Assembly: GCA_037189525.1 (NCBI GenBank)
Contig: JBBCJC010000002.1
Coordinates: 288,001 to 352,000, forward strand
Length of the DNA stretch: 64,000 nucleotides
Source: Gemmatimonadales bacterium
GTDB lineage: Bacteria > Gemmatimonadota > Gemmatimonadetes > Gemmatimonadales > GWC2-71-9
Direction of reading: 5' to 3'
Shown here: positions 10,574-52,419 of the stretch, one piece after another
Layout: each line of letters starts with the position of its first letter
Numbering within the stretch: position 1 is the stretch's first letter
Made by a program: the position numbers and the translations under genes
Notes under the pieces: generated by a model
Seen by the model: only the letters and a program-made list of their open reading frames with translations
What the model was told of the DNA's origin: nothing
The model's database searches: none

Positions 10574-10588
10574 ATCAGACCACGACCC

Positions 10589-13204: not shown

Positions 13205-13211
13205 GGTGTGC

Positions 13212-33408: not shown

Positions 33409-33413
33409 CCGCC

Positions 33414-36030: not shown

Positions 36031-37130
36031 GCGCGCTGCGTGGCTTCGTCCGAAAAGAAACCTGGCATCTGCTTCGCGATCGCCAGACGCTCGGCATTCT
36101 GATTTTGATGCCGTTGATCCAGGTTCTGCTCTTCGGTTTTGCGGTGCGCACGGAAGTCGACAACATTCGCCTCGCCATCGTCGACCCGACGCCGGACTAT
36201 CGGAGCGTAGAACTCCGAAGCCGCTTTGGCGCCACGTCGAACTTTCGGATCGTCGGAGCCGTCGGCAGCACTGCCGAGCTGCAGCCGCTGTTCGAGAGCG
36301 GACAGGTTCGCCAGGCAGTGGTCTTCGAACCGAGGTTTGCGGAACGGATCGGCCGCGGCGAGGCGGTTGCTATTCAACTCATCACCGACGCCACCGATCC
36401 GAATACCGGTAGCATCATGCAAGCGTACGCGATGTCGGTGATTCGCCAATACGAGGCCGAGCTGGCTCGGACGGCGCCGCGCGTGCGGATCGTGCCGCAG
36501 GTTCAGATGCGGTTCAACCCGACGCTCGAGAGCGTCAACCTCTTCGTGCCCGGCCTGATTGCCTTCGTGCTAACGCTCACCTCGGCGCTGATGACGGCCA
36601 TCTCGATCACACGCGAGAAAGAGATGGGCACCATGGAAGTGCTGCTCGTCTCGCCGCTCCGTCCCTGGCAGATCGTGGTGGGCAAGGTGATCCCGTACAT
36701 CGCGCTCGGTTTCGGGAATGTTCTGCTCGTACTGACGGCGGCTCGGGTGGTCTTCGGCGTTCCGATCAATGGCAACCCCGCGCTGCTTCTGGCGGAGAGC
36801 CTGCTCTATATCGTGGTCGCCCTCGCGCTCGGTGTGCTGATCTCGACCGTGGCGCCCTCGCAGCGGGTGGCCATGATGGCGGCGCTGGCCGGGTTGATGC
36901 TGCCGACCATGATGCTCTCGGGATTCATCTTCCCGATCGAGAGCATGCCGGCACCGCTCCGTGCGCTCTCCAACATCGTTCCGGCGCGCTGGTTCGTCAT
37001 CGTCGTGCGCGGCATCATGATCAAGGGCATCGGCATCGAACATCTCTGGCGCGAAACGCTCGTCCTCGTCGGCATGGCCACCACGCTGCTGACCTTGAGC
37101 GCCCGGCGGCTCGCCGTCCGGCTGGGATAA
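36027..37130 (+). CDS. ABC-2 type permease (YbhS-like)
   Basis: FVPGLI..SITREKEMGTME.LLVSPL..LSGFIFPI. Confidence 0.9.
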   Translation: MSALRGFVRKETWHLLRDRQTLGILILMPLIQVLLFGFAVRTEVDNIRLAIVDPTPDYRSVELRSRFGATSNFRIVGAVGSTAELQPLFESGQVRQAVVFEPRFAERIGRGEAVAIQLITDATDPNTGSIMQAYAMSVIRQYEAELARTAPRVRIVPQVQMRFNPTLESVNLFVPGLIAFVLTLTSALMTAISITREKEMGTMEVLLVSPLRPWQIVVGKVIPYIALGFGNVLLVLTAARVVFGVPINGNPALLLAESLLYIVVALALGVLISTVAPSQRVAMMAALAGLMLPTMMLSGFIFPIESMPAPLRALSNIVPARWFVIVVRGIMIKGIGIEHLWRETLVLVGMATTLLTLSARRLAVRLG

Positions 37131-37133
37131 CCC

Positions 37134-38276
37134 ATGCGCACCCTGCTCTTCCTGATTCGGAAAGAATACCTCCAGATTTTCCGCGATCGGGCCACGGTCT
37201 TCCAGATCTTCTTCATTCCGATCGTGCAGCTCCTGCTGCTCTCGAACGCGGCGACCTTCGGAATCACCAACGCGCGGATGCACGTCGTCGATCTCGACCG
37301 GAGCACGATGTCACGTGGTCTGGTGGAGCACCTCGTTGCATCGGGCCGGTTCGTGGTATCGTCGGCGGTGCCGTCGCAGGAGGCCGCCAATCAGAGCCTG
37401 CTCGATCGCGAGGCCACCGTGATCCTGACCATTCCGTCCCGCTTCGAGCGCGACCTGGTCCGCCAGGGCACCGCCCCGGTGCAGCTCGTTCTCAACGCGG
37501 AGGAGGGAGCGGCCGCGGGGATCGTTCAGGCCTATGCGCTGCAGATCATCGGCGACTATGGTCGCCAGCTTGGCATCGAACTGCGCCCCCAAACGGACCC
37601 GCGGATCGATCCGGCCCCGAGGGCGGCCACGGCGGCGTTCGACGTTCGTGCCCGCAGCTGGTTCAACCCGACGCTCAACTACAAGCACTACATGGTGCCG
37701 GGCATCCTCGTCTCCCTCGTCACGATCATCGGGATGCTGCTCACCGCGCAGAACATTGCCCGGGAAAAGGAGGCCGGCACGCTCGAGCAGCTCAATGTCA
37801 CCCCGATCACCAAGGGGCAGTTCATCGCGGGAAAGCTGCTGCCCTTCTGGCTGCTGGCGCTGGTGATGTTCAGCCTCGGTCTGATCGCCGGTAAGCTGGC
37901 GTTCGGAATTCCGATGCGCGGCAACCTGCTGCTCGTCTTCTTCTCGGCGGCGGTATATCTGACCGTGGCCCTGGGGACCGGCCTCTGGATCGCCACCATC
38001 GCGTCGACCCAGCAGCAGACCATGTTCGTCTCGTTCTTTGTGCTGGTGATTTACCTGCTGATGAGCGGTCTCTTCACACCGATCGACAGCATGCCCACCT
38101 GGGCGCAGTGGATGGCCGAGCTGAATCCGGTCAAGCATTTCGTGGTCATCATGCGTGCCGTGCTGGTGCGAGGCGCCGATCTGAGCGGTATCGCCGTACC
38201 GCTCGGCGCGCTGGCGACGCTCGGCCTGCTGGTGTTGACGGCTGCAGTCCGCCAGTATTCCAAGACTCACGGCTGA
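37134..38276 (+). CDS. ABC-2 type permease (YbhR-like)
   Basis: MVPGIL..IAREKEAGTLEQLNVTPI..MSGLFTPI. Confidence 0.9.
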   Translation: MRTLLFLIRKEYLQIFRDRATVFQIFFIPIVQLLLLSNAATFGITNARMHVVDLDRSTMSRGLVEHLVASGRFVVSSAVPSQEAANQSLLDREATVILTIPSRFERDLVRQGTAPVQLVLNAEEGAAAGIVQAYALQIIGDYGRQLGIELRPQTDPRIDPAPRAATAAFDVRARSWFNPTLNYKHYMVPGILVSLVTIIGMLLTAQNIAREKEAGTLEQLNVTPITKGQFIAGKLLPFWLLALVMFSLGLIAGKLAFGIPMRGNLLLVFFSAAVYLTVALGTGLWIATIASTQQQTMFVSFFVLVIYLLMSGLFTPIDSMPTWAQWMAELNPVKHFVVIMRAVLVRGADLSGIAVPLGALATLGLLVLTAAVRQYSKTHG

Positions 38277-38291
38277 CCTATCAGACCGCGC

Positions 38292-38343
38292 ATGCTCCGC
38301 GTCCTGATTGCCCTATGCCTGGCTGGCCCCCTGGCGGCGTCAA
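38292..38343 (+). pseudogene. 5' stub (signal peptide only) of a DUF885 gene homologous to 52420
   Basis: MLRVLIALCLAGPL versus MIRVLLAFCIAAPL; same position directly after a ...QYSKTHG permease end. Confidence 0.7.
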
Positions 38344-38592
38344 CGGCGCGATCTACTAGTTGGCGCGCTCAATCAGGCCGGGTTCCAATGCAAGCCACCG
38401 CAAGGCGCGCACCATATCCTGGCGGATTTACGGCAATCCGCCGAGTGGCTGACTATCGAGGGCGGCGTGGCGACGGTGCCGGGCACCAGCTTCTTTTCCG
38501 ATTCCCAGATGGGGCGGGACTACACACGATTCGCGTTCTGTAGGACGGAGGATCCGCTGCACGCGGCGGTGGAGCGGCGGCGGCGGTTGTAA
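38344..38592 (+). pseudogene. Degenerate copy of the aminotransferase 3' end
   Basis: RRDLLVGALNQAGF..PQGA..ILAD..WLTIEGGVATVPGTSFFSD..RFAFC matches 27862-28134, with a small internal deletion. Confidence 0.9.
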
Positions 38593-39044
38593 AGCCTGGC
38601 TGCGAGCCACCGACCGGAGCAGCTGAGGTGGCGGACAGTCCCGTTCGCGATTGGTCACCTAAGGCCAGTTGTTCGTCCGGCTGCGTTCATGTGAGCTTCC
38701 ACATGATCCGCATAAGTTGCGTATCTACAACATGTTACAGGATGACAGAACCTGGCTCATAACTTGAGATAGCATCACGCCAACCCCTTCCGGCGAGGCT
38801 ACGGGCAATGCATGCACCCTTCATCGTTGGGGCGATCGGGGGGGCGATCAGCTCTTCCTCCTTCAAGAGCACTCCCCAGTTGCAGCAGACCACGTCGTCC
38901 GATACCTGGTCCTGCAGTCCACCTCGGGGCCGCCAACTAATGTCATCGAACGAACGGCAGCAGTTGCTCAACCGACTGCTACCCGTTCACGTCGTCCTGA
39001 TGCTAGCATGCATTGAATGTCTACAAGCTTTGCGAGATATGTAG

Positions 39045-39761
39045 ATGGGAAACGCTGGCACCGCACAAGTATACATCCGGAACGGCATCTATTTCGTGAC
39101 GATCGACGGTGAGGGCATCGTTATGGACCTTCCGGGTGATCGGTACTATGGCCTTAGTGAGTTCGGTGCTATGGTCTGGCAAGCGATTGAACAAGGTCAC
39201 ACGGCTGCTGTGCCATTCCCTGAAAACCAATTTGCCCAGCAAGTGGACGAATGGGTACGGCTCGGCTTGATGACATTTCACGATCGGCCCCAAGTAGAGA
39301 TACCTATACGAAAGGAAGCCGGTACGCCTGCCATTAAGGCGTTTGATGATACTGTAGCACTGCAAGCCTCCTTTTCATGGACAGTGCTATGTCGCCTGTT
39401 TCTCTCTACGTGGCGGGTCAACCGAATACTCCGTCATCAAGGGATATGCGTTGCGTTGAAGCAAATTCAAGAGATTGCCATCGTCGACGAACTTAAAACG
39501 GACCATTGCGAACGACAACTTGGCAAGATCATCCGTACCTATCGCCTAGGGCGGCGCGTACTTAGCCAAGGTCAGGAAGATTGCTTGCCCCGCTCGCTGG
39601 CCCTGGCATATGTCCTCCGTCATGCTGGCATCGAAGCCGAAGTGTGCTTCGGAGTACGGCAGTTCCCGTTCTATGCGCATGCGTGGGTGGAAGCTAATGG
39701 AAGAGTTCTTAACGATGAGATCACAACGATCGGCTCCTACGCGGTTCTAGCACGATTCTGA
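39045..39761 (+). CDS. Lasso peptide maturation protein B (fused RRE/PqqD-like domain + transglutaminase-like Cys peptidase)
   Basis: N-terminal DGEGIVMDLPGDRYYGLSEFGAMVW (RRE); C-terminal CLPRSLAL..FGVR..PFYAHAWVE..VLND (Cys/His/Asp). Confidence 0.93.
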   Translation: MGNAGTAQVYIRNGIYFVTIDGEGIVMDLPGDRYYGLSEFGAMVWQAIEQGHTAAVPFPENQFAQQVDEWVRLGLMTFHDRPQVEIPIRKEAGTPAIKAFDDTVALQASFSWTVLCRLFLSTWRVNRILRHQGICVALKQIQEIAIVDELKTDHCERQLGKIIRTYRLGRRVLSQGQEDCLPRSLALAYVLRHAGIEAEVCFGVRQFPFYAHAWVEANGRVLNDEITTIGSYAVLARF

Positions 39762-39782
39762 CAGCCTCACTAGGAGTAACGC

Positions 39783-41657
39783 GTGCATGGTTTTGTTGTG
39801 CGGTATATGAAAGCGATTGATGAACAGCAACCGCCAGTGCTTGACGTTTGCCAGGATGACAGGATTGGCCTAGCTGCAGGAAGGCGCTTCCGACTGCTAG
39901 TGCGGCCACTCCCGACAACACCAGAAGCAGAAGCCGAACGTCAACCGTATGTATTCGGGCACACCGTCGCTGTGTATCAGGGCCGGATAGACAATCGGCG
40001 TGAGATCATCGATCGAATTGGAGACTCACTGCTTGAGCAGGTCGGGGACAGCGAGCTTATTGCACGTGCCTATTCTAAGTGGGGGGCCAACTTCCCTGCT
40101 ATAGTACTGGGGGAGTACTCATTTGCGTTGATCAACCAGCATACAGAACAACTTATTGCCGGAAGAGACAGCCTTGGTATCGGTCATTTGTTCCAATATC
40201 AAGATACGAGCGCTGTCTGGGTCGCATCAAACCTGGAGATTCTGCTCGCCGCACTTCCGAGTCGCCCCTCATTTGACCGTAGTGCGCTGGCTGAATATAT
40301 CGCCACCGGCGGCTTACTCGTATCCGGTCGAACTATCTATACTGGGATCGATGAAGTTCCAGCCGCACATGTTCTAGTTCAGAGTGGAGCTGCCGTTACC
40401 GTTACGCGATACTGGGAGCCTGTTCCGGAATCACAGGCTCGTCTTCGCGGACCTGACGAATATGATGAAGAATTCAGGTCAATCCTATCGGCAGCCGTGA
40501 AGGCGGCTCTCCGATCCAATACACCAGTATGGTCGGACCTTTCGGGTGGACTCGATTCATCTACAGTGACCGCGCTCGCTGCGTCGCTTGATTGCAGTGG
40601 TAACGACGGTATAACAGCATTCTCGATGTCAGCATCGATGACAGCACTAAGCAACGAGAGCCCCTTTCAGGATGATTTCATTGCCCGTTACCCTATTCAA
40701 CAACATCGCCTCGACATTGATGACTATTTGAGCTTTGGGACACCCGAACCGCCATCATGCCACCCGTCTAAAGCGATCATTTATCGGCCGATTCGTCAGG
40801 CTACCGCCGAACTTTTTGCTCAGCATGGCGCGCAGACTCACCTCACTGGCCGTGGTGGCGACAACATCTTTTGCGGCGATGAGTTTCCACCAAGATACCT
40901 TGCCGGGTTGTTACGTGGACTCAAACTGCGCCAATGGATCCGAGAGATAAACGATTGGGCACGTCAAGGAAAACGGAGTCTATGGAATCTTGTGTGGCAT
41001 TGTAGTCGGTCGAGCTTAACGGACTTGTACGCCGGCGAAGCAGACCGCGGAATCGTTCCGACTTGGTTGATCGCTCCGTTTCGTGACCAGGTAACCCAGA
41101 TAGATGAAGGTCAGTGGACGTCAGGATACCGATTGTACAGCGACCCGGGTCGAGAACTTCAGTATCGCTCAATACAAATGACGTCAAGGGTTGTCCGCTT
41201 CATGCCTGTTGGCGATGAGCGGCACCCGTTGCTATACCGGCCCCTTGTAGAATTTGTTCTCGATCTTCCCTGGGAGCACCTCCTTCGACCAGATGAGAAC
41301 CGCATTATCCAGCGACGCGCTCTACGCAACGTCCTTCCAGAAAGCATCCGTCTTCGGACCTCAAAGACCAGTGCGACCCCCGTGTTTCTACGTGGGTTGC
41401 GCCGCCACTGGACAACTGTACGACACTATACCGAGGGACGGCGCCTAGCGGAGCTTGACATCCTTGACCCTATCCCTTTTCACGCCGCGTGCGAGCGCCT
41501 TCGGCATGGGCTGCTAGCAAAGCAGTTTCGCTACCTAGTTGGTGCCTTGACCCTCGAAATCTGGCTGGAGGCGAACTCCAATCCAGTGCGTGACCAAGCT
41601 ACAGCCGGATTCTTCGCCGCCGACCACAGCATAGGCCAAATGAAGTGCATGAACTAA
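39783..41657 (+). CDS. Lasso cyclase C (asparagine-synthetase-like macrolactam synthetase)
   Basis: GRIDNR, RDSLG, LSGGLDSS PP-loop, LTGRGGD, HPLLYRPLVEF; lacks the N-terminal glutaminase Cys; adjacent to B. Confidence 0.92.
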   Translation: MHGFVVRYMKAIDEQQPPVLDVCQDDRIGLAAGRRFRLLVRPLPTTPEAEAERQPYVFGHTVAVYQGRIDNRREIIDRIGDSLLEQVGDSELIARAYSKWGANFPAIVLGEYSFALINQHTEQLIAGRDSLGIGHLFQYQDTSAVWVASNLEILLAALPSRPSFDRSALAEYIATGGLLVSGRTIYTGIDEVPAAHVLVQSGAAVTVTRYWEPVPESQARLRGPDEYDEEFRSILSAAVKAALRSNTPVWSDLSGGLDSSTVTALAASLDCSGNDGITAFSMSASMTALSNESPFQDDFIARYPIQQHRLDIDDYLSFGTPEPPSCHPSKAIIYRPIRQATAELFAQHGAQTHLTGRGGDNIFCGDEFPPRYLAGLLRGLKLRQWIREINDWARQGKRSLWNLVWHCSRSSLTDLYAGEADRGIVPTWLIAPFRDQVTQIDEGQWTSGYRLYSDPGRELQYRSIQMTSRVVRFMPVGDERHPLLYRPLVEFVLDLPWEHLLRPDENRIIQRRALRNVLPESIRLRTSKTSATPVFLRGLRRHWTTVRHYTEGRRLAELDILDPIPFHAACERLRHGLLAKQFRYLVGALTLEIWLEANSNPVRDQATAGFFAADHSIGQMKCMN

Positions 41658-41737
41658 ATGACTTGCTCAGCCGGATGCCAGCTCCCCACGGTTCGAGCAT
41701 TTCTTTATCGGGAGCATTTCTCAAGACGAGGTGTATC

Positions 41738-41923
41738 ATGGAACGGAAGCAGAGCGCCCTCAGGCAGATCAACAGCACTGGTGGCAAGACCGAGTTCACG
41801 CCGACGCCGCTCGGCACTGTGTCCGGCACGAGGGTCCTGGGCCTGGATCGCCTCACGGGTACGATTCCTGGTTGTACCGCGTGCGACTTTAACACAGACT
41901 ACGCGAAGGGTGTGTTCGGCTGA
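41738..41923 (+). CDS. Lasso peptide precursor A (61 aa, MERKQSALRQINSTGGKTEFTPTPLGTVSGTRVLGLDRLTG-TIPGCTACDFNTDYAKGVFG)
   Basis: GAGGTG RBS before ATG 41738; follows the cyclase; leader ends LG..RLTG with Thr at -2; Asp at core position 9; followed by a stem-loop. Confidence 0.82.
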   Translation: MERKQSALRQINSTGGKTEFTPTPLGTVSGTRVLGLDRLTGTIPGCTACDFNTDYAKGVFG

Positions 41924-41962
41924 AAATCGCTGAACCATACACCTGCAACAAAGGATGACAAC

Positions 41963-42018
41963 GGTGTGCACCCGTTCACTAGCCTCAAGCTAGCCTAGTA
42001 CACGGAACGGGTGCCACC
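41963..42018 (+). terminator. Stem-loop downstream of the precursor gene
   Basis: GCACCCGTTC (41968-41977) pairs with GAACGGGTGC (42005-42014); inner ACTAG/CTAGT, outer GGTG/CACC; no U-tail. Confidence 0.6.
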
Positions 42019-42068
42019 AATGTCAGCCGAACCTGTCGCTGCCAGTGTAGGTCTGCACCGGAGACAAG

Positions 42069-43676
42069 ATGGTTTATCGTAAGAATCCTCACGAGACTGT
42101 TGGCTTGGTGTTGATCGCTTCTTGCGACGTTGATCCCTTACGCCAGGCCCTTCAGGTGGCTCTAGCACAGCGTGGAATCCGCTGCATCGTCGAGACGGCT
42201 ACGTGGGCCGCAGTGCAACCGGTCGACATGGCTACAAATCCCGAAGTACTACTACTACTCCCTTGGGATCTTGTCGCTGATCTTTCCTGGTGTCGCGGTG
42301 TCCCAGCCGATCCACCAGACCTCAGACAGCTTGAGTTGCGAATGGAAGAAGTCATCCAGTGGCTCGCAACACGGCACAACACCACGTTCGCGTATCTCCC
42401 TGCACCAATCCCACCGATTTGCGGCCGGGGACGCGACAATCGAATCCTAGCAAATACTCTCGTACGCGCCGTCAGCCGACTTTCGCCTATCGTATTGCCG
42501 TCAGAGATGTTCTCCTGCACCAGCTTATTCGATCATGGGTGCGCTATCGCCGATACAGCCCTTAGCACAGCCGCTGAGATACTCATTCGGACTGCAATGG
42601 CTGAATCGACAACTACGGCTAAGGTCCTTGTAACGGACTGTGATCATGTGCTGTGGAGTGGGGTAGTGGCGGAAGATGGTGTCGAAGGCATTTCATTTGG
42701 TCCTTGTGGGCAAGGATATCCCCATTTTGCCTACCAACGACTGCTAGTTCGACTGAAGCGTGACGGGATATTGCTCGCCGCGGTAACACGGAATGATCCC
42801 GAGGTAGTCGGTCCATTACTCGCAAGCGGTCGGTTGCAGCTCAACGACGGGGATTTTGTAGCAGGGATCGCCAGCCACGATGCTAAATCAGCACAGATCC
42901 GGCAGTTATCGGAACAGCTCGGACTGTCCTTGGATTCTTTTGTATTCGTCGACGATAATCCAGTGGAGCTGGCTGAAGTTGCCAGTGCACTTCCCAAGGT
43001 TCGGTGTCTTCAGTTCCCCGAGGACGTGCGCAACTTCCCCTCGTTTCTCGAGGAACTGGCTGGGCTATTCCCCAGAGGAATCAGGACCGCAGAGGATCGC
43101 GACCGAACCGCATACTACCGCCAGCGATTGGAGGGTGTACAACCGAGTCAACTGTCGGGGGCGGATCTCAGCCAATTTCTGCGGGGCTTGGAAATGCGAC
43201 TAACCGTCGAGAATCGAACGCACAGTGATTCCACAAGGGCGCTACAGCTCATCAATAAGACCAACGTATTCAACTTGAACGGCCATCGTTTTTCCGATCG
43301 CGAGATAACAGAGCTGCTTGTCAACGGAGGCCAGCTATGGACGGCAACGCTCGAGGACCGGACCGGCAATCACGGTGAAGTATTGGCATGCTTAACCGAT
43401 GGGGACAATGTGGTACGGTCTTTTGCAATGTCGTGTCGTGTTCTTCAGCGGCGAGTTGAGTATGCTTTCCTTGTCTGGTTCACGCGCCTTTCGAACGCAC
43501 CCCAGAAATGGCAGTTTGTTCCTACCGACCGGAACGAACCAATGCGGCGCTTCTTCGCTGACCCTGCCTTTAGGTCGTTAGGACCCGACGAGCCAATGCG
43601 GCTCGACACCAAAGCTTTTGCGACTACACACGCTGACGACCTAAGTTTATTCGATCTTCGTACCGTAGGAGTATGA
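42069..43676 (+). CDS. FkbH-like HAD-IIIC phosphatase/glyceryl transferase
   Basis: KVLVTDCDHVLWSGVVAEDG (DxD), FVDDNPVE, RALQLINKTNVFNL, C-terminal MSCRV acyl-carrying Cys motif. Confidence 0.88.
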   Translation: MVYRKNPHETVGLVLIASCDVDPLRQALQVALAQRGIRCIVETATWAAVQPVDMATNPEVLLLLPWDLVADLSWCRGVPADPPDLRQLELRMEEVIQWLATRHNTTFAYLPAPIPPICGRGRDNRILANTLVRAVSRLSPIVLPSEMFSCTSLFDHGCAIADTALSTAAEILIRTAMAESTTTAKVLVTDCDHVLWSGVVAEDGVEGISFGPCGQGYPHFAYQRLLVRLKRDGILLAAVTRNDPEVVGPLLASGRLQLNDGDFVAGIASHDAKSAQIRQLSEQLGLSLDSFVFVDDNPVELAEVASALPKVRCLQFPEDVRNFPSFLEELAGLFPRGIRTAEDRDRTAYYRQRLEGVQPSQLSGADLSQFLRGLEMRLTVENRTHSDSTRALQLINKTNVFNLNGHRFSDREITELLVNGGQLWTATLEDRTGNHGEVLACLTDGDNVVRSFAMSCRVLQRRVEYAFLVWFTRLSNAPQKWQFVPTDRNEPMRRFFADPAFRSLGPDEPMRLDTKAFATTHADDLSLFDLRTVGV

Positions 43677-43720
43677 ACTCATGAACTAGTCCATCCGCTA
43701 AAGCAGCAATCGAGTAAGCA

Positions 43721-46333
43721 ATGAAAAAAAACTTGTCACTTGATGCCATACGCGAATGGAACAGCATCTACTGGCCGACTCTGTCGCCCGATGGACAGTG
43801 GTTCGCTTGCTGCGTTGCACACGGCTCCGGCCTTACAACGTTGCTCGTTACAGGAACATCTACTCAATACAAATGGCGTCTCTCACTTAGCCTCAAGATC
43901 CCGAAGGCAGACCTCAAGACAGCGCCATTCAGCTTCTCGATGGACTCCCGCTGGCTCGTTGCAATTCACGCAGGTGGCGCCAAACTCATATCGATTAGCT
44001 CTGGCATCGTCCGTCAAATTGACGGTGCGACAAAAGTTGCTTTCAATAGTCCTTTATCGAGTTGGATTGCCGTAGAATACCGCAGCACTGTGAACGGCAA
44101 ATGTTCTCTGCTGCTATACAACCTCAGTACAGGCCATACCGTACGTATCGCAGAGGGGGTACGCGACTGGACTTTTAGGCCCGATGGCAGAGTGATCGCT
44201 TGGATTAAGAATTCCGAATCCGGTGCGGATCAGCTCATATGTCATAGCATGGGTACCGGCATCGAACAGGTTTTGTACCGAAGCACCCATGGCGAGCTCA
44301 CAAATCTTGGTTGGTCAACACTAGGGGAAAACGCTCTGATCGCGGTATCTCTGGGTCGGAGTACCGACCCAGGCCATGTCGTGGTCGCTAAGCGGATTCC
44401 ACTTAGAGCGTCGGACCCATCGGCTATCGTGTGTGTGGTACCGATTCCAGACGGAAAAATTGTTCCGACCCGCGACCTAATTGGACCACGCTTGGCCGCT
44501 GATGGTAAGCGGCTCATTATTCCATTGGCAACGCAAAACAGAACGTCTGACCGACAATCCCAACAGACCGAAAGGGTCGGAACCGGCGGGGTTACCTCCG
44601 ATAAAAACCCTATTGTCTGGCATTGGCGAGACCGTCAGTTACCCTCCCGACGCTGTAAAACACCGCCGGTACCGGATGTCATAGCGATCGTCTCGATCGA
44701 GGACGGTGTGACAGTATCGATCGAAGTTGGCACAGGGGCCGACCTCGTTTTGTTATCGGATGACAGGTATGCGATCTACAGCGATCACAGACCGTACGAA
44801 CGGGAAACCAGTATGTGTGGGCTCGTCTATCGAGACCTCTATATTGTTAACACACACACAGGTGACCGCCGACGCATCGAAACCCGGCTGCCTAATGTAG
44901 CCCATTGTGATACAGATCTCCCCTCGCCCGACGGTCGGCTCTTTCTGTACTGGAATGGTGCGACCGGTGAGTACATCGTGCTCGACGCGGCCACGGGTAG
45001 CGTTCGCGATATCACTCGCGGAATGTCCGTGAGTTTCGTAGACGATGATTGCGACTACAACGTCCCCTTTCCACCGATTCCGCCCGTGGGCTGGTGCACG
45101 AATAGTCGAGCGGTTGTGCTATGTGACGGATGGGACCTTTGGATTGTACCGATCGGCGAAGGAAAGCCAAGTCGGCTGACACCATCCGGACGAGAGACGA
45201 GTATCAGGTATCGTCGTGTCACACAGGCGGGCCAAAGCCGAGGCAACATCGATCTGAATCGGGACGTCTTTGTCCATATGTATGGGGAGCAGTCGAAACG
45301 CGAGGGGATTGCCCGGATTACTTGCAATAGTGACAATGGATTTCACGTCTTGCTCTGGGACAATGCGAAAATTTGGTGGACACACGCACTACAGGCCGAG
45401 ACTTTAGCGTATAGCCGCCAAACGTTTGTATGCTGTCCAGACTGGTTCGTTGTCGGCACAGATCATCGTTTGACGAATATCAATCCACAGCAAGCAGACT
45501 ACAACTGGTCCCCTGGAACTCGGCTGATCAACTATACGGATGCCTACGGAAAACACCTTCAAGCGGCTCTCTTCTTACCAAGCAACTATCAAGCCGGTGC
45601 AAAGTACCCTACTATTGTCTCCATATACGAGAAGCTATCGGGAACGTTGCACCGCTATGAACCACCAGACCTAGCTCGCATCGTCAATACCAGCATCTAC
45701 ACCAGTTGCGGCTATGCAGTCCTTCACCCCGATATCCGTTATATCATTGGTGAGCCTGGGCTCTCTGCAACCGAATGTGTGGTACGAGGGACTGAGGCCG
45801 CGATACAAACTGGAATCGTCGACCCAGACCGGATCGGCCTCTTCGGTCATTGCTGGGGCGGTTACCAAGCCGCAGCGATTGCGGCCAACTCCTCGTTATT
45901 CAGAGCGGTTGCCGTTAGCGGCGGTATTACAGATCTGGTGACAATGTACTATTCTGTATACTGGAAAACTGGTGAGTCAAACCAGGCTCTTATGTTGGCC
46001 AATCAAGGACGAATGGCGGGACCGTTTTTCGAGCATCCGAGCGCCTTTGTCCGTAATTCGCCACTGTTTGTTGCCGATCGCATCAATTCACCGATGTTGA
46101 TTCTTCATGGCGACAACGATGACGTAGTAGATTTTAACCAAGCGGTTACACTGTACAATGCGTTGCGGCAGTTGGGGCGTCAGGTCGTACTGATACAGTA
46201 TCCTGATGAAGGGCACTCGTTGCGATACCCACGAAACCAACACGACGCCATAGGCCGAGTCCGAGATTTCTTTGATTCGATGCTACAAGATACCACACCG
46301 CCCACATGGCTCGACGTAGGGGTTTCTCGCTAA
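43721..46333 (+). CDS. S9 (prolyl oligopeptidase-fold) peptidase/isopeptidase-like protein with GHCWG nucleophile motif
   Basis: SPDG propeller repeats, KYPTIVSIYE, VDPDRIGLFGHCWGGY, LILHGDNDDVV, YPDEGH. Confidence 0.88.
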   Translation: MKKNLSLDAIREWNSIYWPTLSPDGQWFACCVAHGSGLTTLLVTGTSTQYKWRLSLSLKIPKADLKTAPFSFSMDSRWLVAIHAGGAKLISISSGIVRQIDGATKVAFNSPLSSWIAVEYRSTVNGKCSLLLYNLSTGHTVRIAEGVRDWTFRPDGRVIAWIKNSESGADQLICHSMGTGIEQVLYRSTHGELTNLGWSTLGENALIAVSLGRSTDPGHVVVAKRIPLRASDPSAIVCVVPIPDGKIVPTRDLIGPRLAADGKRLIIPLATQNRTSDRQSQQTERVGTGGVTSDKNPIVWHWRDRQLPSRRCKTPPVPDVIAIVSIEDGVTVSIEVGTGADLVLLSDDRYAIYSDHRPYERETSMCGLVYRDLYIVNTHTGDRRRIETRLPNVAHCDTDLPSPDGRLFLYWNGATGEYIVLDAATGSVRDITRGMSVSFVDDDCDYNVPFPPIPPVGWCTNSRAVVLCDGWDLWIVPIGEGKPSRLTPSGRETSIRYRRVTQAGQSRGNIDLNRDVFVHMYGEQSKREGIARITCNSDNGFHVLLWDNAKIWWTHALQAETLAYSRQTFVCCPDWFVVGTDHRLTNINPQQADYNWSPGTRLINYTDAYGKHLQAALFLPSNYQAGAKYPTIVSIYEKLSGTLHRYEPPDLARIVNTSIYTSCGYAVLHPDIRYIIGEPGLSATECVVRGTEAAIQTGIVDPDRIGLFGHCWGGYQAAAIAANSSLFRAVAVSGGITDLVTMYYSVYWKTGESNQALMLANQGRMAGPFFEHPSAFVRNSPLFVADRINSPMLILHGDNDDVVDFNQAVTLYNALRQLGRQVVLIQYPDEGHSLRYPRNQHDAIGRVRDFFDSMLQDTTPPTWLDVGVSR

Positions 46334-46366
46334 ATTGCCGCACGGTGGCAGAGGATCGAGGATCCA

Positions 46367-48790
46367 ATGATCTCCCTAGTGCATGACGTCCGTCAGGCAG
46401 TTCGCAACATCCGCAATCACCCCGGCTTCGCGAGTCTAGCCGTTCTGGCTCTCGCACTCGGTATAGGCGCTGCTACGACTATCTTCAGCGTCCTCCAGCA
46501 TGTCCTTTTCAAGCCATTCCCCTATACTGATGCAGAACGTATAGTCGTTGTTCAAGTCCGGCGGTCAGATGCCGATCGTCGCAGCTGGCGCTCAGCCTTT
46601 CCGATCGCGGAGTTCCGCGAGTATGCCACACAGAGCGCCGTCTTCGCTGAGGTCGCAGCCGATGCTGTGGATGAGGTGCTGTTTGATACGTCGGAAGGCA
46701 TAGAGCATCTGCGTGGTGCGCTCGTGTCTGGCAACCTGTTTGCTTTTCTCGGCGTCCATCCTGTCCTAGGTAGGGGCATAGCGCCAGATGATGCGGCACC
46801 CGGGGCACCGGCTGTTTTCGTCATTAGCAATCGAATGTGGCGGGCACGGTTTGGCTCCGACCCTTCGGTCGTCGGGCAAACCTATGCGCTAAACGGAATG
46901 CCGACGGTACTGGTCGGCATCATGCCACCTCAATTCGCTCACCTGGACGCAGACCTCTGGCGGCCGGTGTCGCTCGATCAGCCGAGCCGTGATGCAGGTA
47001 GTCGTTTCTACAATCTGAAGGCGCGCCTCGCTCCCGGAGTAAGCACTACTGCTGCCGAGGCCCACCTGCAGTCGATCGCCACCAGAATCGCACCAGTCTT
47101 TCCGAGAATCTATCCGGAAGGCTATCGTGTGCACGTCGTCCGGTGGATCGACAGCGTAGTAGGCCCATTTCGCGCTACACTCTACATACTTGCTGCCGCC
47201 GTTGCAGTCCTCCTATTGATTGCCTGTGCCAACGTCGCCAATATGCTCTTAGCGCGTGCCAGTACGCGCGAAGGCGAACTGGCTATACGCGCCTCTCTCG
47301 GCGCCAGCCGGAGCGCTCTCGTCAGACAGCTCCTGATCGAGAGCTCGCTGTTGGCTGCGGCTGGAGCCCTCATCGGCGTCCTGGCAGCGGTCTTGGGTGT
47401 TACCTTCCTGGTGCGCATCCTTCCCGATCAGCTAATCCCTCCCGAGGCAACTATACGGATCAATCTCCCGGTGCTTGTCTTTGGCATCGTGCTCGCCTTC
47501 AGCACAGTACTCATCTTCGGCCTAGTACCCGCGTTACGGACCGCACATCGCGATCTCGTTTCATCCGTCCCGTCGGCAGCGCGCAGCACCAGTACAAAGA
47601 GCCAGACCACGCTCAGCAGTATGCTCGTAGTCGCCCAAGTTGCGTTAGCGCTCGTTCTTGCAGTCGGGGCCGGTCTTCTCATCCGTACGTTTGTCAATGT
47701 ACGAAACGTTCAGCTCGGCTTCGACCCAGCAAACACGTTGGCACTAACAGTTCGTTTGCCGTCGAATGGCTCACCACTATCCGGTTCGCTGCTTGTCGGT
47801 CAAATTCTTGACAGATTACGGACTGTTCCCGCTGTGACGGCAGCGACAGTCACAAACGGGATCCCCGGATACGGCGGTCTGCGGACTGAGGTCGAAGTTC
47901 CAGGCCAGCCCACGGTTGAGCCAGGTACCATGTCACTCGTTCAATTCTCAAGCGAGGATCTCGCCAGCGTGCTTCGCCTCCCGATCCTGCGAGGTCGTTT
48001 TTTGTCACGAGACGATATCACCGCTGGTCGGCGGGTAGCCGTTGTCAACGAGGCACTGGCACAACGGTATTTTGGTCATACGGACATCGTTGGGCGCTCG
48101 GTGCGCTTGAACATACTCGCGCTCCTGGCTGGCAATGCGGCGGACACGACAAGTTTCGAAGTGGTCGGCATTACCGCAGATGCTAAGAATCACGGGATCC
48201 AAGAGCCGGCAATTCCGGAGTCGTTCGTTCCATACTCACTCGCAAGCCTACCAAATTATGTACTGCTGATCCGAACTTCTGGATCACAGTTGGCGCCGTT
48301 TGACATCACCCGACAGCTGCGAACTGTCGACCGCGGCATCGTAGTCACTGAGAACCGGCGGCTTATCGAGTACCTACAAAAGTTCTCGTACTCCGAACCT
48401 CGTTTCGGCGTCGCCGTCCTCGGTATGTTTGCTAGTACTGCCCTTATCCTGGTGGCTCTTGGAGTGTATGGCGTGGTTGGGTATACGACCTCACGCCGAA
48501 CTCGAGAATTCGGCATCCGGCTTGCTCTTGGTGCGACGCCGGCGACCATTCAAAGACATGTGATCGGCCGTTCCCTCCGCCTAGTTGGGTTTGGTCTCGT
48601 ATTCGGGCTAATCGCCGCATTTGCAGTTACCCAACTCATCAGAAGTCAACTCTGGGGTGTACCGCCACGGGATCCCATGACCTTAGCCATTGCCGTCAGC
48701 GTGGTACTCATCGTGGGAATTGTAGCATGCTGGGCCCCCGCACGCCGGGCAACAAGTATTGATCCGACCGTTACGATGCGGAGCGAATAA
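46367..48790 (+). CDS. ADOP-type duplicated MacB/FtsX ABC permease (orphan, no ATPase)
   Basis: DVRQAVR..PGF..LALGIGA; LLIACANVANMLLARA..E.AIR.SLGA; RTREFGIRLALGA; PARRATSIDP. Confidence 0.92.
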   Translation: MISLVHDVRQAVRNIRNHPGFASLAVLALALGIGAATTIFSVLQHVLFKPFPYTDAERIVVVQVRRSDADRRSWRSAFPIAEFREYATQSAVFAEVAADAVDEVLFDTSEGIEHLRGALVSGNLFAFLGVHPVLGRGIAPDDAAPGAPAVFVISNRMWRARFGSDPSVVGQTYALNGMPTVLVGIMPPQFAHLDADLWRPVSLDQPSRDAGSRFYNLKARLAPGVSTTAAEAHLQSIATRIAPVFPRIYPEGYRVHVVRWIDSVVGPFRATLYILAAAVAVLLLIACANVANMLLARASTREGELAIRASLGASRSALVRQLLIESSLLAAAGALIGVLAAVLGVTFLVRILPDQLIPPEATIRINLPVLVFGIVLAFSTVLIFGLVPALRTAHRDLVSSVPSAARSTSTKSQTTLSSMLVVAQVALALVLAVGAGLLIRTFVNVRNVQLGFDPANTLALTVRLPSNGSPLSGSLLVGQILDRLRTVPAVTAATVTNGIPGYGGLRTEVEVPGQPTVEPGTMSLVQFSSEDLASVLRLPILRGRFLSRDDITAGRRVAVVNEALAQRYFGHTDIVGRSVRLNILALLAGNAADTTSFEVVGITADAKNHGIQEPAIPESFVPYSLASLPNYVLLIRTSGSQLAPFDITRQLRTVDRGIVVTENRRLIEYLQKFSYSEPRFGVAVLGMFASTALILVALGVYGVVGYTTSRRTREFGIRLALGATPATIQRHVIGRSLRLVGFGLVFGLIAAFAVTQLIRSQLWGVPPRDPMTLAIAVSVVLIVGIVACWAPARRATSIDPTVTMRSE

Positions 48791-48830
48791 ATCTTCGGTC
48801 GTGCGGATCATCACTATTGTCAACGAAAAT

Positions 48831-49865
48831 TCATCGGGCCTTGTGGCCTGGCCCGACCGTAGCTCGATGTTCGATCGACGATCGCTCCTTTCGAAGCGAG
48901 ATTCCGTAACGCTGTAGCTCCTTGAAGAAGGTCGTACGGCCCAAGCCGAGAGCTAGTGCCGTACGCTCAGCATTCCAACTATTTGCAGCACAAAAGTCAA
49001 GAAGGCGGCCCCGCATCGTAACAGGTAGTGGTGTTTGTCGAGGCGCAACGCCACTTGGCATGTGAATTACCGCTGTCCCAAGTCCGAGGGATTCGGCCAC
49101 GACCCGACCATCGAGAACTCTCTCATCGGCGAGAAAGACAGCCCGCTCGATCGTACTCCAGAGTTCGCGCACGTTCCCTGGCCACCGGTGCCCGAGCAAC
49201 ACAGGTTCTGCACTTGGCGCCAGCTCGGCACCAGCCGGCGTAGCGAAATAACGGGCCAACAATATGACATCGCCCCAACGCTGGTCGAGAGGCAGCAGCG
49301 TAAGTACCGCACCAACTACCCGCTGCATCAGATCATATCGGACCAACCCATCGGCGACCTTATTACCCACATTCTCCTGGACTGCTGCGATGACGCGGAA
49401 GCGGCTTTGCCGCTTGGTTGTCTCGCCGACTCTACGGAAATTCTTGTTGTCCAAGACTCGAAGAAGCTTGCCCTGCGATTCATAAGGCATACTGCAAAGC
49501 TCATCGAGAAACAGGGTACCATTGTTCGCATCCTCGATCAAGCCAGATACACTTTCGATTGCACCGCTGAACGCCCCTTTGCGATGACCATATAGGGTGC
49601 CCTCGACAAGTTCGCGCGGGATGGCCGCGCAGTTCACATCAACGAGAGCGCCAGGCCGCCCACTCCATTGATGGATTTCCCTTGCAAACAACTCTTTCCC
49701 TGTTCCTGTAGCGCCGATGAGCAGAATCGGCAGGTCGCTTTTGGCAAAGCGTCTCGCATTTGCGACAGCATGTCGTATTTCTGGGGACGTTCCGAGTATC
49801 GTCGTTTCGGCAACTTCCCCGGCAACCTCGCCCGAAATCTCTACATCGCGAGCAGCATGCCGCAA
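48831..49865 (-). CDS. Sigma54-interaction (AAA+) Fis-family regulator lacking an N-terminal sensor domain
   Basis: GATGTGKE, VNCAAIP, GAFSGA, GTLFLDE, WPGNVREL, C-terminal HTH. Confidence 0.9.
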   Translation of the reverse strand: MRHAARDVEISGEVAGEVAETTILGTSPEIRHAVANARRFAKSDLPILLIGATGTGKELFAREIHQWSGRPGALVDVNCAAIPRELVEGTLYGHRKGAFSGAIESVSGLIEDANNGTLFLDELCSMPYESQGKLLRVLDNKNFRRVGETTKRQSRFRVIAAVQENVGNKVADGLVRYDLMQRVVGAVLTLLPLDQRWGDVILLARYFATPAGAELAPSAEPVLLGHRWPGNVRELWSTIERAVFLADERVLDGRVVAESLGLGTAVIHMPSGVAPRQTPLPVTMRGRLLDFCAANSWNAERTALALGLGRTTFFKELQRYGISLRKERSSIEHRATVGPGHKAR

Positions 49866-50110
49866 CCTGGAACGTTTTCTTGACGACCGTTCCAGACATG
49901 GCGCTCATCACTTTTTGACTAACTCGGGAGGTTGCGGTTCGGTGATCGTTTCCACATCGTCGTCCCTTCTGATGATGGTCGGCGCCAGAAAAAAATACGA
50001 ACGTTGTCTCGATCGACCGACTGTGTATGCCACCGAGCTACGCCCCTCTCGTTGGTAGGAAATGGGGAAACACCTAGTGGTCGGTCAGGACGACTTGGGC
50101 CGCGACGGCA

Positions 50111-50147
50111 TCCTACGTTATGATTCCGTCTGGATCATAGCGTAGGA
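50111..50147. repeat. 14-bp inverted repeat between the two regulator genes
   Basis: TCCTACGTTATGAT / ATCATAGCGTAGGA, 13/14 complementary. Confidence 0.6.
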
Positions 50148-50517
50148 CGCTGTACAACATATCGACGGACCTGAGCCCACCTCCACTTCGACCAGTATTT
50201 GTGTTACCTAGTCTAGGTGGTATTCAATCCGTAGACTTTGTCTGGATCGCATCCTCGATGGCTTTCCCCCGCGACGAGTCGTCTTCCCACTCTCCGCGAG
50301 ACCTTCTAGTAGGCGAGATACTCCTGCCGGAAAATGTCGTGCAGGCAAGACGTACATAACGCGTAAGACATGGGTTTTACTCGAGGGAACCCCAAAGACT
50401 GGAGTGCGGGTGGCGGGCCAGTGACGAAAGCACCAAACGCCATTGTACGACAACGGGTTAGCTCGCGGGGTGCGAGACTTAAAGTTGTAAATGGTTTCAC
50501 TTATGCTAGAGCAGTCG

Positions 50518-51467
50518 CTATCGATCTTTACGGACGTCCGTGGGCGCTTCGGCGAGGAGCTTGTAAAGCGACGGTCGCGAGATACCCATCAGGCGCCCAG
50601 CCTTGGCTTTGTTGCCATCTGTGGAGCGCATCATCTCTTGGGCTTCCTGGTGCTTGGTTTGACGCGCCTTCGCTTGTACTCAAATCGGCTTGGGAATATC
50701 GGATACTTGGATGGGACGTGGACTCCGCAGTCTGCTAGCGATGTACTGACAAACTGACCGGAGTTGTCTCATGTTTCCGGGCCACGGCGCTGTGCCAAGG
50801 ATCGCAGCAGCAGCAGCAGCAGACAGTACCGGCACAAAGTCGCGCCCCAGCTCGACGAATGCCTCCTGCAAGTACGCTGTCGCGAGTGGGTACTATTTCC
50901 CGATGGCGGTCACGCAGCGACGGCAGGGAACTGTAAGGCACTCCGCACGATAGAACAGTTCTTCGAAAAACAGGCCTTCTGGGAACGGGCTGCCAGATCC
51001 ACCGAGGTCGCGCAGATGATTCGGACATCAACTTTGCGCGGATGGCTATCGCCGATTCGTCGAATGAAGCCGGTCTCGAGAATGCCAAGGAGAGTTTGTT
51101 GAAAGCGATGTGATGCGTGTCCCAGCTCATCGAGGAGCAACGTCCCGGTATGTGCCTGTTCGACTAGGCCAACACGATCGTGATGGGCGCCTGTATATGC
51201 CCCTTTCGTTGAGCCGAGCAACTCTGCTTGCCGAAGTTCATCCGGAATGGACGTGACCGAAAGTTCCACAAAAGGGCTCGCCACGCGGGGTGATATCCGG
51301 TGTATATACCTCGCAAGCGTACTCTTCCCGGTACCCGTCGGACCAAGAATGAGTATTGGATAGGGTGTTTCCGCCAGATCCCTCACAAGGTGGTCAACCG
51401 TTGGGTGGGGTACAAGCTTCGCCTGTGTGCTCATGATACCAGCTTCCACGTCTTGATATGGGTACAC
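50518..51467 (-). pseudogene. Frameshifted second sigma54-type AAA+ regulator
   Basis: GPTGTGKS, GAYTGA and LLLDE in one frame; LPSLRDR, WPGNMRQL and the Fis HTH GNKAKAGRLMGISRPSLYKLL (stop 50518) in other frames. Confidence 0.8.
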
Positions 51468-51796
51468 ACCAACCGGGATGGCTTGTCACAATATCAACAT
51501 CGCGACGCACCTAGCGGGTGTGATGGGAGTCACATCCAACGTACATCCCTAGCGCCTTCCTGTGATGGGGTGCAAGAATTTACACAAAACGGCCGGCAAC
51601 GTTTGGGAAACGCGTGTCGAGCAACAATTGCACTCTATGCCTCGCTGGTACGTAGCTCTTTCGCCTCCCCCCGCATCCGCCGGATGGAATTGACCTGACT
51701 CCTTCTTGTAGGACAAAGGATCGCAGTAGTGTTGGTGCTGTTGTGGCCCTTCCTAAGCAATGATCGGCGATAGGTGAATCAATGTAGCCGTGTCGA

Positions 51797-51942
51797 GTCA
51801 GGAACGGTGTAAGACCAAGAAAACTGTCGATAGGTACGCAAGGATCGTGTCCACACGGTAGCTACGTATTACTGGCCACGGCATCACACGCGGTCATTCT
51901 CGCGACGCACGGATGTATCGATCCCTTTCAGCGTGCCCCTGC
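51797..51942 (-). pseudogene. Remnants of the vapC 3' end (51797-51883) and vapB 3' end (51884-51942)
   Basis: Align by eye to 30227-30322 and 30602-30660; GTLKGIDTSVRRENDRV versus GALKGIDTAVRREKDRV. Confidence 0.8.
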
Positions 51943-51943
51943 A

Positions 51944-52400
51944 AGCAGCAACTCGACGACGGCGCCCAAACGGCACCCTGCGCCCGATCCGCGCCGAATA
52001 CTTTTTGATCAACATGGTGTCGATAATCATCTTCCCGTTCCTGATCCGCCCCATGCCCGACGTGATCTTCGGCATCGGCGGCGATCGGTTCGACGCCTAC
52101 CTCACCGAGCGGCAACAGAGCCTGCCCGGATTCATCCGAAGCGCATTCCGACCATGATGTTCCTTTATCACACTCGCGCTGCTGAGCGCAGCTATTACCG
52201 CTCCGGCGCAGGACACGCTCCGACTGGAGGCGCTCCACGCCGCCACGCGGGATCGCGACCCGCGGGCGCGCCAGCTGCGGGCGGCGCTGGTGCGCGGTGC
52301 CGATCTCAGCGGTATCGCGGCACCGCTCGGCGCACTGGCGCTACTCGGCCTGCTGGTGTTAACGATCGCGGTCCGCCAGTATTCCAAGACGCACGGTTAG
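51944..52400 (+). pseudogene. Fused remnants: tetR 3' end, tolC 5' end, ABC permease 3' end
   Basis: NGTLRPIRAEYFLINMVS..LPGFIRSA matches tetR; QDTLRLEALHAA..RARQL matches tolC and is joined to LVRGADLSGIA..RQYSKTHG matching 38154-38276. Confidence 0.88.
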
Positions 52401-52419
52401 CGGCCTCCGAGGAGACTCC

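Follow-up and report, generated by a model that had tools for sequence, protein, structure and literature searches.

The six-gene run

The window considered here, a stretch of 64,000 nucleotides from a Gemmatimonadales bacterium (contig C2, positions 288001-352000), holds a run of six genes in which the enzymes that make a lasso peptide stand next to a protein of the FkbH family. Lasso peptides are peptides made by the ribosome and modified after translation (RiPPs); FkbH proteins are known as enzymes that load glyceryl groups onto acyl carrier proteins (ACPs). An initial annotation had read here a co-oriented run of lasso B, lasso C, precursor, FkbH, S9 hydrolase and permease, and all six genes are indeed present. 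They lie on the plus strand between 39045 and 48790, in the order B, C, precursor (A), FkbH, S9-fold protein and ADOP permease, with intergenic gaps of 21, 80, 145, 44 and 33 nt.

To judge from its sequence, the lasso core machinery is standard; what departs from expectation is the carrier partnership of the FkbH protein and the Ser nucleophile of the S9-fold protein. Lasso B (39045-39761, plus strand) is a putative PqqD-like RiPP recognition element fused to a leader peptidase of the transglutaminase fold (NF033537, lasso B2, 75.4 bits with a cut-off of 33; Transglut_core3, 1.1e-18). The putative element, residues 14-53, matches PqqD weakly (E 0.003, 18.3 bits, cut-off 23.4) and NF033536 at E 0.0013; in the homologous B protein of a related locus, L098, PqqD is matched at 2.3e-5. 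A second lasso B2 protease gene is found on another contig (C3:126696-127055, NF033537 90.3 bits), and a second lasso cluster is therefore likely in this genome.

Lasso C (39783-41657, plus strand) is an Asn-synthetase-like macrolactam cyclase (Asn_synthase 101 bits, 1.4e-28; GATase_7). Its best NCBIfam match is the lasso cyclase model NF033535, at 225 bits, which is below that model's exception-level cut-off of 525. The protein belongs to a distinct clade, whose members are 35-62% identical to it and in which the SGGLDS stretch (S254, G255, G256, D258, S259) is invariant across 29 members.

The precursor (41738-41923, plus strand) is translated to 61 amino acids, with a leader ending in LTG. 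Lasso leaders carry Thr at position -2 of the cleavage site, and it is because of this rule that the cleavage site and the core, TIPGCTACDFNTDYAKGVFG, are predicted as they are. Thr is unusual as residue 1 of a lasso core. Here, it would form the ring with Asp9, and the core is probably TIPGCTACDFNTDYAKGVFG closed as a Thr1-Asp9 macrolactam. Lasso precursors are expected to have Thr(-2) and an Asp or Glu at position 7-9 of the core; the window precursor has Thr(-2) and Asp9, and the pattern is kept in two relatives. One of them, in locus L100, lies directly downstream of a C homologue (tblastn 46.5% over 43 aa, E 3e-7); the other is in L098. All three leaders end in LT followed by Gly or Ala: LTG/TIPGCTACD in the window, LTA/TEPGCVVCD in L100 and LTA/GFGGIYFD in L098, the slash marking the predicted cut. 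The window and L100 precursors also have in common a stretch P-G-C-x-x-C-D ... A-K-G. The predicted core contains two Cys within the ring, three Thr, one Tyr (Tyr14) and one Lys (Lys16).

The run ends with a duplicated permease of the MacB/FtsX type (46367-48790, plus strand), assigned to the ADOP family by TIGR03434 (763 bits, cut-off 622.3, profile positions 1-803 of 803). It is the probable exporter or immunity pump.

An FkbH protein with conserved catalytic domains

The FkbH gene (42069-43676, plus strand) is the only one of its family in the genome. It encodes 535 amino acids, and the profile bears out the family assignment that the initial annotation had made: TIGR01686 gives 192.3 bits against a cut-off of 146.65, over profile positions 2-319 of 323. 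No Pfam family is matched. The profile, the alignment and structure models together divide the protein into a diverged N-domain (residues 1-180), a HAD phosphatase domain (about 181-335) and a GNAT-fold domain (336-535) that carries Cys456. Its relatives make up a large family of proteins of about 545 aa with the same three domains; the best matches are 45-51% identical, and 654 of the proteins tested match at E<=1e-3.

The catalytic motifs that had been noted earlier, DCD and SCRV, are kept, and in columns that do not vary among 22 aligned family members. Asp190 and Asp192 of the DCD motif, with Lys273, Asp295 and Asp296, stand in such columns of the HAD domain. The acyl-holding cysteine, Cys456 in MSCRV (S455-C456-R457-V458), is invariant in these 22 sequences and in 41 sequences. 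If a column counts as invariant when 20 or more of the other 21 sequences in this alignment share a residue, the protein retains 49 of 54 invariant columns in the HAD domain and 61 of 67 in the C-terminal domain, and only 19 of 36 in the N-domain. The N-domain is 29% identical to its relatives, where the family averages 48% and does not fall below 37%. Conserved catalytic domains with an eroded N-domain fit an enzyme that may have retained its catalysis and changed its partner; the N-domain may be the part that docks the ACP.

Structure models agree with this division. The AlphaFold model of the whole protein has a mean predicted local distance difference test score (pLDDT) of 79.7, and its nearest solved structure is 3slr, over the N-domain and the HAD domain, followed by HAD phosphatases of the MDP-1 type. 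Modelled alone, the C-terminal 200 residues give a GNAT fold with a pLDDT of 84.2. In VIA-align this domain reaches Z 9-11, with a root-mean-square deviation of about 3 Å over 120-135 residues, and the top 50 rows are all of the GNAT superfamily. Among them are RimI, the N-terminal acetyltransferases of the Nat group, SbzI, which depends on a carrier, and LasI, which uses acyl-ACP. The top Foldseek matches are protein lysine acetyltransferases, at a weak E of about 1e-3.

The carrier that is missing

In the relatives, the carrier is almost always next door. A profile built from four upstream ACP-like open reading frames, applied to 80 genome loci encoding FkbH relatives, places a dedicated ACP within 2.5 kb of FkbH in 67, mostly 24-260 nt upstream. 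Of the 13 loci where none was placed, eight are cut off within 1.1 kb upstream of FkbH and five are distant relatives. Small upstream frames in L003, L015, L016, L024 and L031 had been candidates for ACPs; these are spurious high-GC frames, and the profile located the true ACPs in other frames. The ACP beside the FkbH family of about 545 aa (L001-L080) is small and divergent, carries a WDS motif and is mostly missed by the Pfam PP-binding model.

In the window, the dedicated ACP of the family is absent. The initial annotation had found no ACP, PKS (polyketide synthase) or NRPS (nonribosomal peptide synthetase) gene in this DNA, and this holds under every search made. PF00550 has 17 matches over the whole genome and none in the window, the nearest being at C2:804006, some 450 kb off and in host-type DNA. 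The profile of the ACPs that flank FkbH relatives finds no match in the six-frame translation of the window (best E 1.8). Nor is PP-binding matched in any of the 148 alternative open stretches, each 50 aa or longer, between 38.3 and 52.4 kb. The missing carrier is exceptional for the FkbH family. The same contig carries a large run of PP-binding domains at C2:804006-860000, in open frames of 1400-2500 aa, which is a PKS/NRPS region.

A tree adds direction to this loss. In a quick maximum-likelihood tree of 79 sequences (two of 80 translated rows, shorter than 330 aa, were dropped), the window protein is nested in an ACP-linked clade of 65 rows, with a support of 99 in the SH-like approximate likelihood ratio test, and has no well-supported sister. 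On this tree, in which the outgroup is not monophyletic and the root is approximate, the nesting means that the ACP loss is secondary. The end branch of the window protein is 0.98, against a median of 0.46.

The cassettes of the relatives indicate what such an FkbH protein ordinarily does. In 10 loci examined, its neighbours include MaoC-SDR fusions, GNAT, MBOAT, Acyl_transf_3 and AAC(3)-fold proteins and an SGNH-like protein. Their acyl groups, supplied by an ACP, would go to something that is not a polyketide; the cassettes look like carrier-fed acylation of a surface polymer. Cassettes with an FkbH protein of about 545 aa are common in Gemmatimonadota.

An S9-fold protein with a cysteine nucleophile

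Directly after FkbH stands a protein of 870 aa with the S9 fold (43721-46333, plus strand; Peptidase_S9, 94.8 bits). The initial annotation had called it an S9 hydrolase. The fold and the Pfam match stand; the ordinary hydrolase does not, for both its nucleophile and its signal peptide have changed. Its motif GHCWGG aligns with GGSYGG of the structure 8wt1, and the nucleophile is therefore Cys711, encoded by the TGC codon at 45851-45853 (plus strand), in a triad with Asp800 and His832. Thus, the Ser-Asp-His triad and the GxSxGG motif of S9 serine peptidases are lacking. A Ser stands at this position in all 29 aligned homologues, and in all 16 alignments of S9 proteins found beside other lasso loci. 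The residues around it (G709, H710, W712, G713, G714), together with D800 and H832, are invariant and kept.

The amino terminus has changed as well. In 27 of the 29 homologues, 33-81 residues with a hydrophobic stretch resembling a signal peptide precede a conserved Trp; the other two are truncated at the N-terminus. Here, 12 residues precede this Trp, with no hydrophobic stretch, and the gene begins 44 nt from FkbH. The closest homologues are only 35-37% identical. The model of the lasso isopeptidase Atxe2 (NF033523) gives 83.6 bits against a cut-off of 400, and by its C-terminal catalytic domain only, which leaves the protein outside that family. The change from Ser to Cys and the loss of the signal peptide suggest recruitment to a cytoplasmic role in acyl transfer or peptide handling.

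An island of foreign DNA

All six genes sit in a compositional island, from 38.6 to 52.3 kb of the window, with a GC content of 0.53-0.58 against 0.64-0.69 in the flanks. At third codon positions, the GC content of the island genes is 0.52-0.59, against 0.70-0.90 in the adjoining flank genes (33-38 kb and 52-58 kb). The FkbH and S9-fold genes fully match the lasso genes in composition. A DNA search finds the stretch from B to S9 in none of 40 relatives, 21 of which are of the same genus, and the matches cover the flanks only. In a sample of the organism's own phylum, the best C homologue is 30% identical, and six of 401 genomes have a match at E<=1e-40, the genome itself included; in a sample of Acidobacteriota, one of 401 genomes has a match at E<=1e-60, with 36% identity. 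The lasso operon was acquired horizontally, on an island of foreign origin.

The probable source run has also been assembled a second time, and there 36500-54000 lies within one contig of 55 kb, without a single difference, so the layout is not an artefact of one assembler; as the other assembler worked on the same sample, the agreement does not count as independent evidence.

Copies of gene ends stand on both sides of the island. At its left edge, 38344-38592 (plus strand) repeats, as a fragment, the 3' end of an aminotransferase gene at 26917-28134, with 76% DNA identity to C2:315862-316134 (window 27862-28134) and only the C-terminal part of Aminotran_1_2. At its right edge, 51944-52277 repeats the 3' end region of a TetR gene at 31523-32128, with 84% identity to C2:319914-320247 (window 31914-32247). 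Both copies are diverged, and their originals lie 10-20 kb upstream in the window. The arrangement looks like a duplicated integration hotspot. The same aminotransferase and TetR genes also flank another variable stretch, at 28.2-31.4 kb, which contains a MazE-like gene and an endonuclease resembling Holliday-junction resolvases.

Between the permease and the right edge are two genes for sigma-54 activators. One encodes an AAA+ protein (48831-49865, minus strand), convergent with the operon and 79% identical in DNA to a paralogue at C2:268460-269637. The other (50521-51467, minus strand) is a pseudogene broken into three frames, with Sigma54_activat at 50910-51467 and AAA_lid_14 (50683-50892) and HTH_8 (50521-50679) in other frames. 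Both have paralogues, at 75-79% DNA identity, some 55-70 kb upstream on the contig. The DNA that adjoins the island on its upstream side, at 33045-38276, holds host-type genes for HlyD, two ABC ATPases and two ABC-2 permeases, which are found at 84-85% DNA identity in two genomes of the same genus (G005, G021) that lack the island.

No promoter is called in the region. Scans of it for sigma-70 promoters and for terminators gave numbers at or below shuffle expectation, and the sigma-54 -24/-12 pattern was matched 19 times where 23 are expected. A strong RNA hairpin does lie between the precursor and FkbH (41953-42028, plus strand): the minimum free energy of 41915-42075 is -57.9 kcal/mol, with z -3.66, and none of 200 shuffles folds as well. 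It is without a T-run, and no terminator-like site is called there.

Where the glyceryl group might go

The explanation we favour, tentatively and with slightly less than even confidence, is the one that the initial annotation had raised as a possibility: that the FkbH-derived glyceryl (acyl) group ends up on the lasso peptide. Much of what has been described here speaks for the peptide as acceptor, namely the exceptional loss of the ACP and the retained catalytic domains, together with the tailoring slot in related loci and one Acidobacteriota locus, both taken up below. So do the common strand and composition of the six genes, the GNAT fold of the C-terminal domain, the nesting of the protein in the ACP-linked clade, the altered S9-fold neighbour and the known acylations of Lys and Tyr in lasso peptides. 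Counting against it, no homologous lasso locus within reach carries FkbH, and the collections searched contain no close relative of the FkbH protein.

A stronger version of this explanation is more doubtful. Here, the FkbH protein would load itself with glyceryl without any carrier and hand it to the lasso peptide, either directly or through a relay from cysteine to cysteine that involves Cys711 of the S9-fold protein. On this version, lasso clusters would also have taken up FkbH loaders two or more times: here without a carrier, and in the Acidobacteriota locus as a fusion of FkbH, ACP and thioesterase.

The order of events that we infer runs from the peptide to its export. B would remove the leader, and C would close the Thr1-Asp9 macrolactam. 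The HAD domain of FkbH would take up 1,3-bisphosphoglycerate and remove its 3-phosphate, after which Cys456, in the GNAT-fold domain, would carry the glyceryl group in thioester linkage. As no carrier protein is found here, the group would then pass to the lasso peptide or its precursor form. By one route, the transfer would be direct, in a GNAT-like site, for instance to the Lys16 or Tyr14 of the core, or to one of its Thr or Cys residues. By the other, trans-thioesterification would carry the group to Cys711 of the cytoplasmic S9-fold protein, whose propeller might hold the peptide; the S9-fold protein would then stand in for the relay of ACP and thioesterase found in the fusions. The ADOP permease would export the product. 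Among the candidate acceptors, Lys16 and Tyr14 are the closest analogues of the residues modified in known Lys-acetylated and Tyr-acylated lasso peptides.

Does the pairing recur?

This would be a stronger case if other lasso loci carried FkbH genes. The initial annotation had pointed to the co-occurrence of FkbH with lasso B and C as a check; the check was run, and nearly all of its outcome weighs against the peptide as acceptor. Among the matches listed, 79 metagenome loci hold relatives of C at up to 48% identity. FkbH is in none of the 79; B is in 58, an S9 gene in 15 and ADOP in 2. Seen from the other side, lasso B stands beside none of the 80 FkbH loci, three of which have C-like Asn synthases, none an S9 protein and one an ADOP permease. 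The closest relatives of C (P0124-P0139) are 50-62% identical, and the lengths of the contigs listed for them match none of the lengths listed for the 120 best FkbH hits, an indirect hint that the nearest C relatives are without FkbH. A single-sequence search with the C protein in metagenome contigs returned no relative. The FkbH protein, for its part, has no close relative in the collections searched, the best being 51% identical, and to our knowledge no FkbH enzyme acts without a carrier. The hairpin after the precursor counts on the same side, since it means that the downstream genes could form a separate transcript.

Related loci do show what may stand in the place that FkbH and the S9-fold gene occupy here. 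There, C or A is followed either by tailoring genes of another kind or at once by the exporter. In L098, whose C protein is 38% identical, a fusion of a GT2 glycosyltransferase with a transglutaminase-like domain and a second GT2 follow directly on the precursor (12166-16683), and its product is a candidate glycosylated lasso peptide. In L184, where C is 36% identical by genome search and 35% by tblastn, the ADOP permease comes directly after C; the absence of FkbH from this locus is, of course, a further point against the pairing.

In the Acidobacteriota sample, 50 of 401 genomes have an FkbH match, 60 matches in all, and all 60 were examined with some 10 kb of sequence to either side, as far as the contigs reached. 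Lasso B is beside one of them, which again weighs against the pairing. This unrelated lasso locus, L189 (G646:C11:150218-170198, genes at 268-11918), has a B1, a B2, a C, an HPr-kinase-like protein, an ABC transporter and an NTP_transf_5 nucleotidyltransferase. About 0.9 kb past these lasso genes, on the same strand, begins a gene for a fusion of FkbH, ACP and thioesterase of 1024 aa; a gene for a phosphopantetheinyl transferase is on the minus strand, at 16770-17579. No precursor gene was found in this locus. Here, an FkbH loader and then a unit of the alpha/beta-hydrolase fold stand beside a different lasso clade, which parallels the FkbH and S9-fold proteins of the window.

The parallel is a loose one. 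It is a single case, noticed post hoc, and carries no statistical test. The closest full-length homologue of the L189 fusion sits in L191, a nonulosonic-acid glycan locus of the NeuB type. Among 58 genomes of the order to which G646 belongs, the full-length fusion was found in none of the 57 others, and the FkbH-bearing stretches examined in that order, L246-L250, show no lasso genes. The pairing of FkbH with lasso genes rests on essentially one locus and one loose parallel.

L191 (G596:C6, genes 1814-14096, minus strand) contains NeuB, NeuC and CMP-transferase genes. It also carries the FkbH-ACP-thioesterase fusion, a fusion of an adenylation domain with ACP and thioesterase, a phosphopantetheinyl transferase, a methyltransferase and an amidotransferase of the AsnB type, and is a candidate locus for acylated nonulosonic acids.

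Alternative explanations

The absence of FkbH from every homologous lasso locus within reach fits the view that B, C, A and perhaps ADOP are an ordinary lasso cluster, with the FkbH and S9-fold genes as unrelated cargo and FkbH serving another acceptor, such as a distant carrier or a surface glycan pathway. The relatives of FkbH do work in ACP-fed cassettes, with MBOAT, GNAT, AAC(3)-fold and MaoC-SDR genes; the genome has its 17 PP-binding domains, including the large PKS/NRPS region at C2:804-860 kb; and the hairpin could end the lasso transcript after the precursor. However, the genome has no other FkbH gene, and this one stands in low-GC DNA of foreign origin, after the precursor and before the exporter, at gaps of 33-145 nt. 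No carrier domain comes closer than about 450 kb, and the nearest is in host-type DNA; since 67 of 80 relatives have their ACP within 2.5 kb, it would be atypical for FkbH to serve a remote one; and the island has no glycan genes. Passenger genes are, on balance, a rather unlikely explanation. It is also quite improbable that FkbH is a relic, decaying and inactive after the loss of its ACP, beside an S9-fold protein that is simply a peptidase crippled by the change from Ser to Cys. The erosion of the N-domain, which breaks 17 of 36 family-invariant positions, could equally be decay, and to this extent tells against a changed partner; the long end branch and the want of close relatives (51% at best for FkbH, 35-37% for S9) point the same way. 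Genes of this island do decay, as the visibly broken sigma-54 activator nearby shows. Against this, both reading frames are open and full-length, and the two catalytic domains of FkbH keep 110 of 121 invariant positions, among them D190, D192, K273, D295, D296 and C456. The S9-fold protein, in turn, keeps G709, H710, W712, G713, G714, D800 and H832, and the composition of both genes fully matches that of the lasso genes.

The remaining explanations give the two proteins work to do, and of a different kind. The S9-fold protein might bind or linearize the lasso peptide within the cell, as an isopeptidase or a sequestering pseudo-enzyme, and acylation by FkbH might be a reversible self-resistance that leaves no trace in the final product. 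S9 peptidases stand beside 15 of the 79 related lasso loci, and the loss of the signal peptide puts this one in the cytoplasm, the site of peptide synthesis. The Atxe2 isopeptidase model does match it weakly (83.6 bits), and Lys acetylation of triculamin acts as self-resistance, according to the available portions of PMC13352647. The Atxe2 score is, however, far under the cut-off of 400 and comes from the generic catalytic domain only; other S9 structures match better than AtxE2; and the S9 genes beside lasso loci elsewhere all keep Ser, the better-matching ones lying on the opposite strand. Self-protection or turnover is no more probable than decay. Finally, the HAD domain alone might be at work, dephosphorylating a phosphorylated peptide or metabolite, with the cysteine unused. 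The structural neighbours of this domain are phosphatases (MDP-1, KDN-9-P, KDO-8-P), and phosphorylated lasso peptides exist, as the same portions of that review report. The island has no kinase, however, and the GNAT-fold domain with Cys456 is conserved as in the acyl-transferring members of the family, which makes a phosphatase and nothing more very improbable indeed.

Comparison with known systems

Glycerylation of the peptide, the explanation favoured here, can be set beside several known systems. The FkbH/OzmB-type loaders deliver glyceryl groups to stand-alone ACPs in methoxymalonyl-ACP and tetronate pathways, for example Mad7/Mad8 and Mad14/Mad12 of tetromadurin (available portions of PMC7489565). 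Like them, the window protein belongs to TIGR01686 and has the same HAD DxD motif and the same cysteine in its C-terminal domain. Unlike them, it is encoded inside a RiPP operon and has a strongly diverged N-domain, on an island without a carrier, a FabH-like enzyme, dehydrogenases or a PKS. The uncharacterized ACP-fed cassettes with MBOAT, GNAT and AAC(3)-fold genes contain its nearest relatives, of the same build and 45-51% identical. Those cassettes keep their dedicated ACP, whereas the window protein has none and has lasso genes for neighbours.

Known acylations of lasso peptides are done by GNAT-type enzymes that use acyl-CoA. The window core, like the peptides they modify, has a Lys and a Tyr. 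Here, in contrast, the donor would come from a glycolytic intermediate and be held on the enzyme's own cysteine, and the group would be glyceryl. The acylated lasso peptides in question are albusnodin and triculamin, acetylated at Lys, and Snou-LP, acylated at Tyr (2026 review PMC13352647, in its available portions). In those portions, glyceryl is not among the lasso modifications listed. A literature search that reached partial texts and stopped short of subscription journals found nothing that connects FkbH or glyceryl groups to lasso peptides or to RiPPs of another kind. For lasso peptides together with haloacid dehalogenases, the accessible literature gave a single mention, in PMC13352647, which is a reference on knotted proteins.

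The S9-fold protein resembles the lasso isopeptidases AtxE2 and SpI-IsoP in having an S9 alpha/beta-hydrolase domain with a propeller beside a lasso cluster. It differs from them in its Cys nucleophile, in its NF033523 score (83.6 bits, where 400 is needed) and in lying co-oriented inside the operon. The likeness to L189 is one of arrangement: an FkbH domain directly downstream of lasso genes and co-oriented with them, then a unit of the alpha/beta-hydrolase fold. The FkbH domain of L189, unlike that of the window, is of a different subfamily, outside the 12 best-scoring of the 60 loci (identities down to about 32%); its carrier and thioesterase are fused in cis; and its lasso clade is one with split B1 and B2, an HPr-kinase-like protein and a nucleotidyltransferase.

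What the locus would mean

If FkbH is a passenger, the cluster is an ordinary lasso biosynthetic gene cluster on a genomic island. If, as the stronger version has it, the glyceryl group is handed to the peptide without a carrier, no glycerylated RiPP would have come before this one. As a class of RiPPs, lasso peptides have been mined well, and each new tailoring reaction adds to their value; a glyceryl group, or another hydroxy-acyl group of three carbons, taken straight from glycolysis would be a new modification, and a polar handle open to derivatization. A natural S9-fold protein with Cys in place of Ser could, in turn, be a new catalyst of peptide acyl transfer or transpeptidation. For the FkbH family itself, an enzyme that is independent of a carrier would overturn the rule by which its members feed ACPs and nothing else.

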